From: Escherichia coli
Lineage (GTDB): Bacteria > Pseudomonadota > Gammaproteobacteria > Enterobacterales > Enterobacteriaceae
Length of the DNA stretch: 64,000 nucleotides
Assembly: GCF_013315695.1 (NCBI RefSeq)
Contig: NZ_CP054353.1
Strand: one strand, 5' to 3'
A program made the position numbers and the translations under genes. The notes beneath the pieces are model-generated. The model saw only the letters and a program-made list of their open reading frames with translations, was not told the DNA's origin and made no database searches. This document shows, in pieces, positions 8,763 through 10,090 of the stretch (positions are counted from its first letter, which is position 1; each line of letters starts with the position of its first letter).

Positions 8763-10090
8763 TTATTTAGCATGTGAAATAACATTGTCTTTCTGGGCGT
8801 TATCTTTTTTATTATCAATTTTCATTGATAACAAAATAGCTACGGCGATAAAGCAAAGAATCGCCTCAACAATAAATATCCCCGTGGCTCCATAATGTGT
8901 AGAAACATAGCCAAGTGATTTATTGATCAGAAAACCACCCAAACTTGAACAAGAGTTAATAAACGCAATACTGATTGCCAGGCCTGATGGTGAAAGTAAA
9001 GCTGAGGGTAAAGCCCAGTACGGACCGTAATAACTGAGAATGCCTACACCGTATAATGTTAATCCCATCATGCGCAGCGTCATCGAAGGTACAAGTGCGA
9101 TCATTAAAAAACCGCAACCTGCAACCAACATCGGTAGTGCGGCATGCCATTTCCTTTCATTCTTTTTATCGGAATGCCATCCCCATAATGGCATACTGAA
9201 CATCGCGAAAATAAACGGAATACTCATAATCAAACCGACATCGGTATCTGTGAAATCCGATGAAAATCCTTTAACCAACCCCGGTAACCAGTAATTTGCC
9301 GCCAACGCCGCTGCCTGAATAAACATATAAGCAAATGAGAGTTGTAGTAATACTGGATTTTTAATGATTGACAGAAAAGATGCATTTGTATTTTTATTTA
9401 ATGCTGCGGCTTTTTCGTTATCAGAATTAAGTTTATCGACCAATGCGGTGACTTGCGATGGTGTAAGCCAGCGGGCTTTTTCCGGACGATCTGGCAGTAA
9501 ATAAAAGGTCAGCGCCCCCAATAACACCGTAGGAATGCCTTCAATAGCAAAAAGCCAGCGCCATCCTTCATAGTTACCGGTATTCATATGTTCAATAATC
9601 CAACCAGACATTGGTGCCGCCAGCACAGATGCAACTGCGATTGATAACATAAAAAAGCTATTCACTTTTCCACGTTCGCGCGCCGGGAACCAACATGCCA
9701 GGTAGTAAACCATGCCAGGGAAAAACCCCGCTTCAAATATTCCCAAAAAGACCCGAGCGAGCAATATATGCTGGGTGTCTTTGGCAAAGAAAATTAACGT
9801 TGTTACTGTTCCCCAACCAACAATAATGGCGCTAATCCATTTTCTTGCACCTAACTTTTGCAATCCAATACTGCTCGGAGTTTGAAAAATTAAATAGGAC
9901 ACAAAAAATATTGAAGATATATTAGCAAAATCCTCTGGAGTAATACCAAGGGATTCATTCATGCGTAAAGCGGCAAACCCAATATTAACACGATCCATAT
10001 AGTTAAAAAATACAGAATAAATGCTAACGGAATAATCTTCCTTTTCACAATAGAAATGGCATCATACAAATCTTTCTGAGGACTGCTCAT
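8763..10090 (-). pseudogene. TtuB-like MFS (anion:cation symporter family) transporter, reading frame interrupted by a frameshift in a T6 run
   Basis: ATG at 10090..10088 encodes MSSPQKDLYDAISIVKRKIIPLAFILYF, then shifts frame at the plus-strand A6 run 10005..10010. The downstream frame (track ORF 8763..9998) resumes NYMDRVNIGFAALRM..., the family signature. One extra T would join them into a roughly 440-aa transporter. Confidence 0.65.

Follow-up and report, generated by a model that had tools for sequence, protein, structure and literature searches.

A one-base deletion in a T homopolymer very probably makes a pseudogene of the gyrA-ubiG MFS transporter gene in a lineage of Escherichia coli

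Results

In the 64,000-nt stretch of E. coli DNA analysed here (the window), the MFS transporter gene lying between gyrA and ubiG is split by a one-nucleotide frameshift at a run of six T's. The same six-T (6T) allele occurs in six complete E. coli genomes in which the gene is annotated as frameshifted, and its frameshift peptide occurs on 494 public contigs. Judged from these sequences, an inherited 1-bp deletion from seven T's to six very probably makes the gene a genuine pseudogene that would no longer yield a working transporter. The genomes and contigs strongly support the genuine inactivating mutation that the first-pass annotation had put forward as one of three explanations, next to a homopolymer sequencing error and a slippery site.

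The reading frame breaks at a six-T run

Direct reading of the minus strand gave exactly six T's at 10005-10010. From the start region at 10090 (ATG AGC AGT CCT ...), translation beginning at ATG 10090-10088 arrives at the run as ...CTG TAT TTT TTA ACT ATA TGG ATC GTG..., exits the transporter frame there and meets a stop after 43 codons. In the list of open reading frames, this 43-aa ORF consists of MSSPQKDLYDAISIVKRKIIPLAFILYF followed directly by LTIWIVLILGLPLYA (in full, MSSPQKDLYDAISIVKRKIIPLAFILYFLTIWIVLILGLPLYA). The conserved NYMDRVNIGFAAL is carried on past the run in the adjacent frame, where the 411-aa ORF begins MDRVNIGFAAL. Insertion of one extra T in silico produced a continuous 442-aa protein reading ...ILYFFNYMDRVNIGFAAL... 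at the junction, and this repaired protein equals the annotated intact MFS transporter of seven-T (7T) genomes in length and in the printed N-terminal sequence. The first-pass annotation had described the ATG, the run, the two ORFs and their peptides correctly, and its proposal that a seventh T would restore one transporter of about 440 aa was borne out both by the in silico repair and by the 7T genomes. The frame breaks at codons 28-29, inside TM1, and the window contains no uninterrupted 12-helix reading frame for this protein. The coordinates are collected in Table 1.

The split is more than chance, since homologous protein continues past the run in the shifted frame and a single additional T keeps the orthologues in frame. 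A T6 run by itself is trivial.

Table 1. Features of the transporter locus and its surroundings in the window
Feature	Position	Strand	Remarks
gyrA	4570-7197	-	
Enolase-superfamily (MR/MLE) acid-sugar dehydratase gene, 400 aa, intact	7548..8750	-	Starts 12 nt past the transporter stop
Very probable frameshifted pseudogene, ACS-family MFS transporter, STM2274 orthologue	8763..10090	-	PGAP annotation of sister genomes; TIGR00893, DgoT
3' fragment ORF, 411 aa	8763..9998	-	Start at Met32, directly ahead of Asp33-Arg34; without the N-terminal half of TM1 and without a Shine-Dalgarno sequence
5' fragment ORF, 43 aa	9959..10090	-	Native for 28 codons (N-terminus, first half of TM1); out of frame and hydrophobic for the next 15, up to TGA
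U_UUU_UUA heptamer, product of the deletion	10004..10010	-	Zero-frame X_XXY_YYZ
T6 homopolymer, site of 1-nt deletion	10005..10010	-	Ancestral E. coli T7: TAT TTT TTT AAC = Tyr27-Phe28-Phe29-Asn30
Shine-Dalgarno sequence AAGGTG	10098..10103	-	Spacing of 7 nt to the true start, 10090
GntR/FCD-family regulator gene, 232 aa, divergent	10328..11026	+	Colinear with the 231-aa homologue in L014
ubiG	from 11104	+	
yfaL	after ubiG		

Run length in other genomes and the ancestral state

The 3.9-kb interval from ubiG to gyrA was retrieved from 12 E. coli loci and aligned together with the window (13 sequences). All inspected 7T loci (six to seven) carried an annotated intact 442-aa MFS transporter, e.g., WP_000098092.1 in IAI39, and all 6T loci (n = 6) were labelled 'MFS transporter, frameshifted' over the same span by PGAP. 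The flanks of the run, 30 nt upstream and 20 nt downstream, were identical in 13/13 sequences. An exact 44-nt 6T probe found matches in only 6 of 5426 complete E. coli genomes. The cluster that holds the transporter was present in 140 of these 5426 genomes, always in single copy and always on the chromosome; for about 100 cluster-bearing genomes that were not listed individually, the length of the run was deduced from the absence of a match to the 6T probe. Compared over 84 nt, the window was matched exactly by five genomes; among the 25 other matches listed, 24 spanned 85 nt, that is, one base more, and the remaining one, AR_0077, spanned 84 nt. The comparison of orthologous loci proposed by the first-pass annotation thus returned 6T in six genomes and 7T in the other cluster-bearing genomes inspected.

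The position is also in frame in Salmonella (CTT TAC TTT TTT AAC) and in a third enterobacterial homologue (CTC TAT TTT TTC AAC), and the ancestral E. coli state is T7, in frame. From these outgroups it follows that a synonymous TAC-to-TAT change at Tyr27 had lengthened the E. coli run from six to seven T's, and that the lineage of the window later lost one T. The Salmonella run (TAC TTT TTT) has six T's in frame, whereas the six T's of the window are out of frame after the loss of one of seven. Replication slippage in the Tyr27-Phe28-Phe29 homopolymer most likely removed this T. Translation from 10090 now departs from its frame midway through TM1 and ends at 43 codons.

The 'frameshifted' label is already public in the RefSeq/PGAP annotation of the sister genomes, and the gene is in this sense an ordinary pseudogene. 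For the window, the annotation should be corrected by merging 9959-10090 and 8763-9998 into one frameshifted pseudogene; a 411-aa transporter accompanied by a 43-aa "hypothetical protein" is the annotation to avoid. Beyond correct annotation, the finding is of little importance.

Inheritance of the 6T allele

Over the 3.9 kb, the window differed from five 6T genomes by 0-3 SNPs and had in common with them eight fixed differences from all other haplotypes. The five genomes of this clade are MS 21-1 (USA), MSB1_4I (Australia), and AF3, AF10 and AF14 (UK blood cultures); the window matches none of them exactly and so adds one more independently made assembly to the clade. The 494 contigs with the exact 43-aa peptide came from NCBI, JGI, ENA and Logan, six single-substitution variants of it were found on 15 further contigs, and all of these variants trace to one haplotype. 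For scale, two intact E. coli alleles were present on at least 1000 contigs and on 191 contigs, respectively. The exact 411-aa ORF, used as a query in the contig search, returned one metagenomic contig only, and the 43-aa peptide was the much better tracer.

These data bear on the second explanation of the first-pass annotation, in which T6 would be a sequencing or assembly error and the true genome would have seven T's and an intact gene. Homopolymers are the classic error site on some long-read platforms. However, the same 6T was present in five other close complete genomes that were independently assembled in three countries, and several data sources yielded the exact frameshift peptide, among them assembled public sequencing runs. 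The clonal genomes with 0-3 SNPs, together with the 494 contigs, indicate an inherited mutation rather than a sequencing error, and we consider such an error so improbable as to be effectively excluded. The allele is reproducible across independent assemblies, and the locus shows both the frame break and the reproducibility expected of a homopolymer-indel pseudogene.

Recurrence of the deletion and signs of decay

6T was also found on another haplotype, that of AR_0077, which is separated from the window clade by 21-22 SNPs and from the 7T strain ECCNB12-2 by only 3. The frameshift peptide of AR_0077 (...IVLTSDLPLYA) was on 19 contigs and its E10 variant was on 2 more; in this background, all four combinations of run length (6T/7T) and residue 10 (D/E) occur. 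Import of 6T into AR_0077 by recombination was considered and rejected: it needs a tract of less than about 230 nt between discriminating SNPs, and an independent deletion is more parsimonious. On the parsimonious reading of these haplotypes, the deletion from T7 to T6 would have taken place at least twice, possibly three times, independently. The T run is a mutational hot spot, though a minor one.

A recurrent change of this kind might also come from a phase-variable (contingency) tract through which populations would turn the transporter off and on again; the deletion on at least two haplotypes would fit such a switch, as would the occurrence, once the E10 variant is counted, of both run lengths with either residue at codon 10. 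Against it, 6T is found throughout the window clade (six genomes), with no 7T member seen, so that two-way variation of tract length within the clone was not observed among them. Moreover, the repaired 442-aa protein with the subclade marker T71 was absent from a collection of 15 billion proteins, a search of low power given that pseudogenes are often not called as proteins. A 7-nt tract is also shorter than typical contingency tracts. We therefore regard phase variation as most improbable, and favour repeated, inherited deletion.

Within the 6T clade, the only polymorphisms over 3.9 kb were three SNPs (L67L, I71T and S439L), all in the broken gene, with I71 lying in the conserved FQIP motif; the three SNPs, too few for a test, fit relaxed constraint. 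The dehydratase is identical in 6T and 7T strains (accession WP_001571680.1 is common to both), and this identity, together with the presence of only three SNPs in the pseudogene, suggests that the deletion is recent and that there is little sign of further decay.

Predicted consequences for the protein

We compared the repaired protein with known families. Residues 25-421 aligned to positions 1-396 of the 399 positions of the NCBIfam profile TIGR00893 (E = 1e-79), residues 21-420 aligned with E. coli DgoT (PDB 6E9N; E = 1e-19), and homologues of the transporter carry PF07690. By these similarities, the protein is assigned to the ACS family (anion:cation symporter) of the MFS (TC 2.A.1.14; DgoT/SLC17-like). 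Its scores lay below the cut-offs of the named subfamilies (268 bits versus 395 for TIGR00893, and 268 versus 615 for HpaX); because the score is below the curated cut-offs of TIGR00893 and of every named equivalog, a substrate cannot be assigned.

DgoT is a D-galactonate:H+ symporter (PDB 6E9N/6E9O) and only a distant paralogue. Its Asp-Arg pair in TM1 and its Arg/Glu in TM4 are conserved in the window protein, whose copy is interrupted in TM1. In TM1, Y31, D33, R34 and N36 of the repaired protein correspond to Tyr44, Asp46, Arg47 and Asn49 of DgoT, and the TM4 counterparts of R113 and E120 are Arg126 and Glu133; D33, R34, R113 and E120 were invariant across 25 homologues. Protonation of DgoT takes place at Asp46 and Glu133, and the carboxylate of its substrate is bound by Arg47 through a salt bridge (PMC6532931). 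Halfway through TM1, at Phe28/Phe29, the frameshift interrupts the window protein five residues ahead of the Asp-Arg pair.

The N-terminal segment that is cut off by the frameshift was present in all 25 homologues, down to 34% identity, with the consensus VKRxIIPFAFxLYFFNxMDRVNxGFAAL; F24 and L26 were invariant, and P21 and Y27 were nearly invariant. The upstream 28 codons are therefore conserved as protein, and a lack of such conservation, which the first-pass annotation had named as evidence against a split gene, was not found. Likewise, 0/25 homologues started at the position of Met32 (ATG 9998). The Kyte-Doolittle profile has a hydrophobic peak at residues 11-29 of the repaired protein that is missing from the 411-aa ORF. 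The comparison of truncated and fused topologies, through the DgoT alignment and hydropathy, thus came out as the loss of the TM1 peak from the shorter product.

These observations also bear on the reading in which the true, functional gene is the 411-aa ORF from ATG 9998 and the 28 codons ahead of it do not belong to the protein. Gene callers predict this ORF, and it has been deposited as 'MFS transporter' in some records. However, the N-terminal segment (KRxIIPFAFxLYFFNxMDRVN in the consensus, with the invariant F24/L26) is found in every full-length homologue, and without half of TM1, Asp33/Arg34 would not be embedded in the membrane. In addition, no purine-rich motif was found upstream of ATG 9998, where the sequence is ATTCTGTATTTTTTAACTAT, as opposed to the conserved Shine-Dalgarno sequence ahead of 10090: the orthologues from Salmonella and L014 have an equivalent GGTG ahead of their start codons, so the signal at 10090 is conserved in both outgroups. 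We give a functional 411-aa gene next to no probability. With no Shine-Dalgarno sequence, the loss of half of TM1 and a conserved N-terminus, the 411-aa ORF is predicted to be nonfunctional. What remains of the gene would be a 411-codon ORF that has neither a ribosome-binding site nor the N-terminal half of TM1 and opens just ahead of the Asp-Arg pair. The 43-aa peptide is hydrophobic at residues 19-37 (Kyte-Doolittle 2.79), and the real product of the locus would be this 43-residue peptide with its strongly hydrophobic tail.

Recoding at the slippery heptamer

The third explanation of the first-pass annotation, a slippery site, was right in one respect. The deletion sets U_UUU_UUA exactly in the X_XXY_YYZ register (tA-U UUU UUA), and a -1 slip at that point would bring the ribosome back into the transporter frame, with Tyr-Phe-Leu-Asn or Tyr-Phe-Phe-Asn as the product. 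The heptamer is identical to that of the HIV-1-type -1 site and lies in the correct zero-frame register. Compensatory low-level frameshifting at homopolymer indels has also been documented elsewhere (PMC5009743). A functionally meaningful full-length transporter might thus arise from -1 frameshifting at the heptamer or from transcriptional slippage, as a leaky allele or compensatory recoding.

Unlike the HIV-1 site, however, the heptamer of the window has no downstream stimulatory structure, is not conserved and is of a kind that shifts poorly in E. coli. The downstream 105 nt folded at -16.6 kcal/mol, which is not better than for shuffles (z = +0.37), and the nearest upstream Shine-Dalgarno-like motif, AAGGAAG, was 26 nt off. 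A dnaX-type Shine-Dalgarno stimulator works at about 10-14 nt. The two-frame layout was not conserved either: the coding sequence runs in a single frame in other E. coli, in Salmonella and in more distant homologues. Heptamers that lack a stimulator reach, in E. coli, at most about 10 times a background of 0.055%, and the efficient U-type motifs are H_HH.U_UU.Y, among which U_UU.U_UU.A is not found (PMC4066793). Transcriptional slippage in bacteria has been documented at runs of 9 A/T (PMC5009743). Measured against a programmed -1 site, the locus has the slippery heptamer and lacks the stimulator and the conservation, and the slippery-site explanation stands for the heptamer and its register only. 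Full-length protein may still be made from the 6T allele in trace amounts, at background level and no more than a fraction of a percent; recoding to a functionally meaningful amount is highly improbable. It is also very unlikely, though conceivable, that the recurrent 6T represents a leaky low-expression state, in which slippage yields the transporter, wild-type or with Phe29Leu, at a fraction of a percent and which is maybe selected in extraintestinal lineages or reverts rarely. Plain loss of the transporter through the inherited deletion is the reading we retain.

The gyrA-ubiG cluster and related systems

The transporter gene belongs to a three-gene cluster between gyrA and ubiG, together with the GntR regulator gene and the enolase-superfamily dehydratase gene (Table 1). 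The first-pass annotation had called the cluster an island. Its GC content of 33-42%, compared with 51-57% in the flanks, agrees with this view, but the cluster occupies the same gyrA-ubiG position in Salmonella enterica, in the same order (ubiG, GntR, MFS, dehydratase, gyrA). We take this Salmonella cluster to be STM2273-2275. Over its full length, STM2274 is 89% identical to the window transporter (441 versus 442 aa). The regulator gene is labelled 'frameshifted' by PGAP owing to an N-terminal extension from 10284; its ORF is intact.

The dehydratase is nearly identical to a Salmonella protein of known structure deposited as "putative dehydratase" (PDB 2GL5/4E6M; E about 1e-259), and no functional assignment of it was found in the literature on STM2273, 2GL5 and 4E6M. 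Its gene is probably co-transcribed with the transporter gene. As about 1.2 kb of untranslated mRNA would now lie ahead of the dehydratase, Rho-dependent polarity on it is plausible, and its expression may be lowered. Uptake through the transporter would be lost in the lineage, and strains of the 6T lineage are probably unable to import the sugar acid of the gyrA-ubiG cluster, which would be relevant should the substrate ever be identified.

STM2274 has been listed as a pseudogene in the host-restricted Salmonella serovar Gallinarum (PMC8538453), which is a parallel loss. Together with the recurrent loss at one homopolymer in E. coli, the Gallinarum pseudogene shows on a small scale how an accessory catabolic module decays in parallel.

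The first-pass annotation had likened the N-terminus of the transporter to that of RhmT, and this likeness was confirmed. RhmT, the L-rhamnonate transporter and also a member of the ACS family, is encoded at a separate, intact locus near 33468 on the minus strand of the same window; its N-terminus matches the one quoted, and it has the same N-terminal basic patch, hydrophobic TM1 and LDRSNIGFA motif, with no evidence that the two proteins have a substrate in common. RhmT is likewise paired with an enolase-superfamily dehydratase in E. coli, in the rhm operon. In one database, the intact transporter of the cluster bears the name 'L-rhamnonate transporter' on grounds of similarity.

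Origin of the cluster

We examined the position and base composition of the cluster, which comprises a GntR-family regulator, an MFS transporter and an enolase-superfamily dehydratase. In the E. coli window and in Salmonella (L013, 4067-7543) alike, it lies between gyrA and ubiG, and it is carried by 140 of the 5426 complete E. coli genomes. Its GC content (window 7548-11026) is 33-42%, compared with 51-57% in the flanks. Instead of being an island of recent origin, the cluster may be an ancestral segment that most E. coli lineages have lost.

Features of the cluster and its intergenic regions
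Feature	Coordinates	Strand	Remark
GntR-family regulator	10284-11026	+	includes N-terminal extension; 'frameshifted' in PGAP
Dehydratase	7548-8750	-	near-identity to PDB 2GL5/4E6M
Palindromic element, ~129 nt	7411-7539	-	between dehydratase and gyrA
20-nt direct repeat TGTTATATCTGATATATCAG	10177-10196		between transporter and regulator
20-nt direct repeat TGTCATATCTGATATATTAG	10247-10266		between transporter and regulator

Annotation of the regulator and the split transporter

Each of the 12 E. coli loci that we inspected bore the PGAP label on the regulator, irrespective of whether the transporter gene carried the frameshifted 6T or the intact 7T allele. A 232-aa ORF starting at 10328 (+) is preceded by a good Shine-Dalgarno sequence (AAGGGG, 7 nt spacing) and spans the GntR/FCD profile from end to end; a 231-aa homologue from another enterobacterium is colinear with it. 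The upstream ATG at 10284 opens only a short N-terminal extension (MITYNGSAA, then a stop codon), and the label seems to arise from the match of this extension, in another frame, to a longer Salmonella-type model. The regulator may well be functional despite the label.

In the divergent promoter region between transporter and regulator, the two 20-nt direct repeats are spaced 70 nt apart and share the near-palindrome ATATCTGATAT, which makes up part of each. Both are candidate operators for the GntR regulator.

The 43-aa frameshift product of the transporter gene (9959-10090, -) has been deposited as a protein in public databases (e.g., ELF17621.1) under the names 'transporter, major facilitator family' or 'hypothetical protein', and the 411-aa remnant is named 'MFS transporter'. 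Both kinds of entry are artefacts that come from annotating a split gene.

Dehydratase and flanking elements

The structures to which the window dehydratase is nearly identical are those of a Salmonella 'putative dehydratase', for which no substrate assignment was found in the literature. None of the named models for acid-sugar dehydratases matched the window protein at its curated cut-off; the best was galactonate dehydratase (249 bits vs 311).

The palindromic element folds far more stably than shuffled sequences (-50.9 kcal/mol, z = -7.5) and matches Rfam V_AS5 over its full length at a sub-threshold score (47 bits vs a gathering score of 96). Its sequence matches the ERIC/IRU enterobacterial repeat. 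Among cluster-bearing genomes, it is missing from two (L003 and L011) and carries extra insertions in a third (L012).

In strains N32 and MS 21-1 (L002 and L005), yfaL/ehaC, a neighbouring gene for an autotransporter adhesin, has an annotated internal stop; the window copy (11966-15724) is an intact ORF of 1252 aa.
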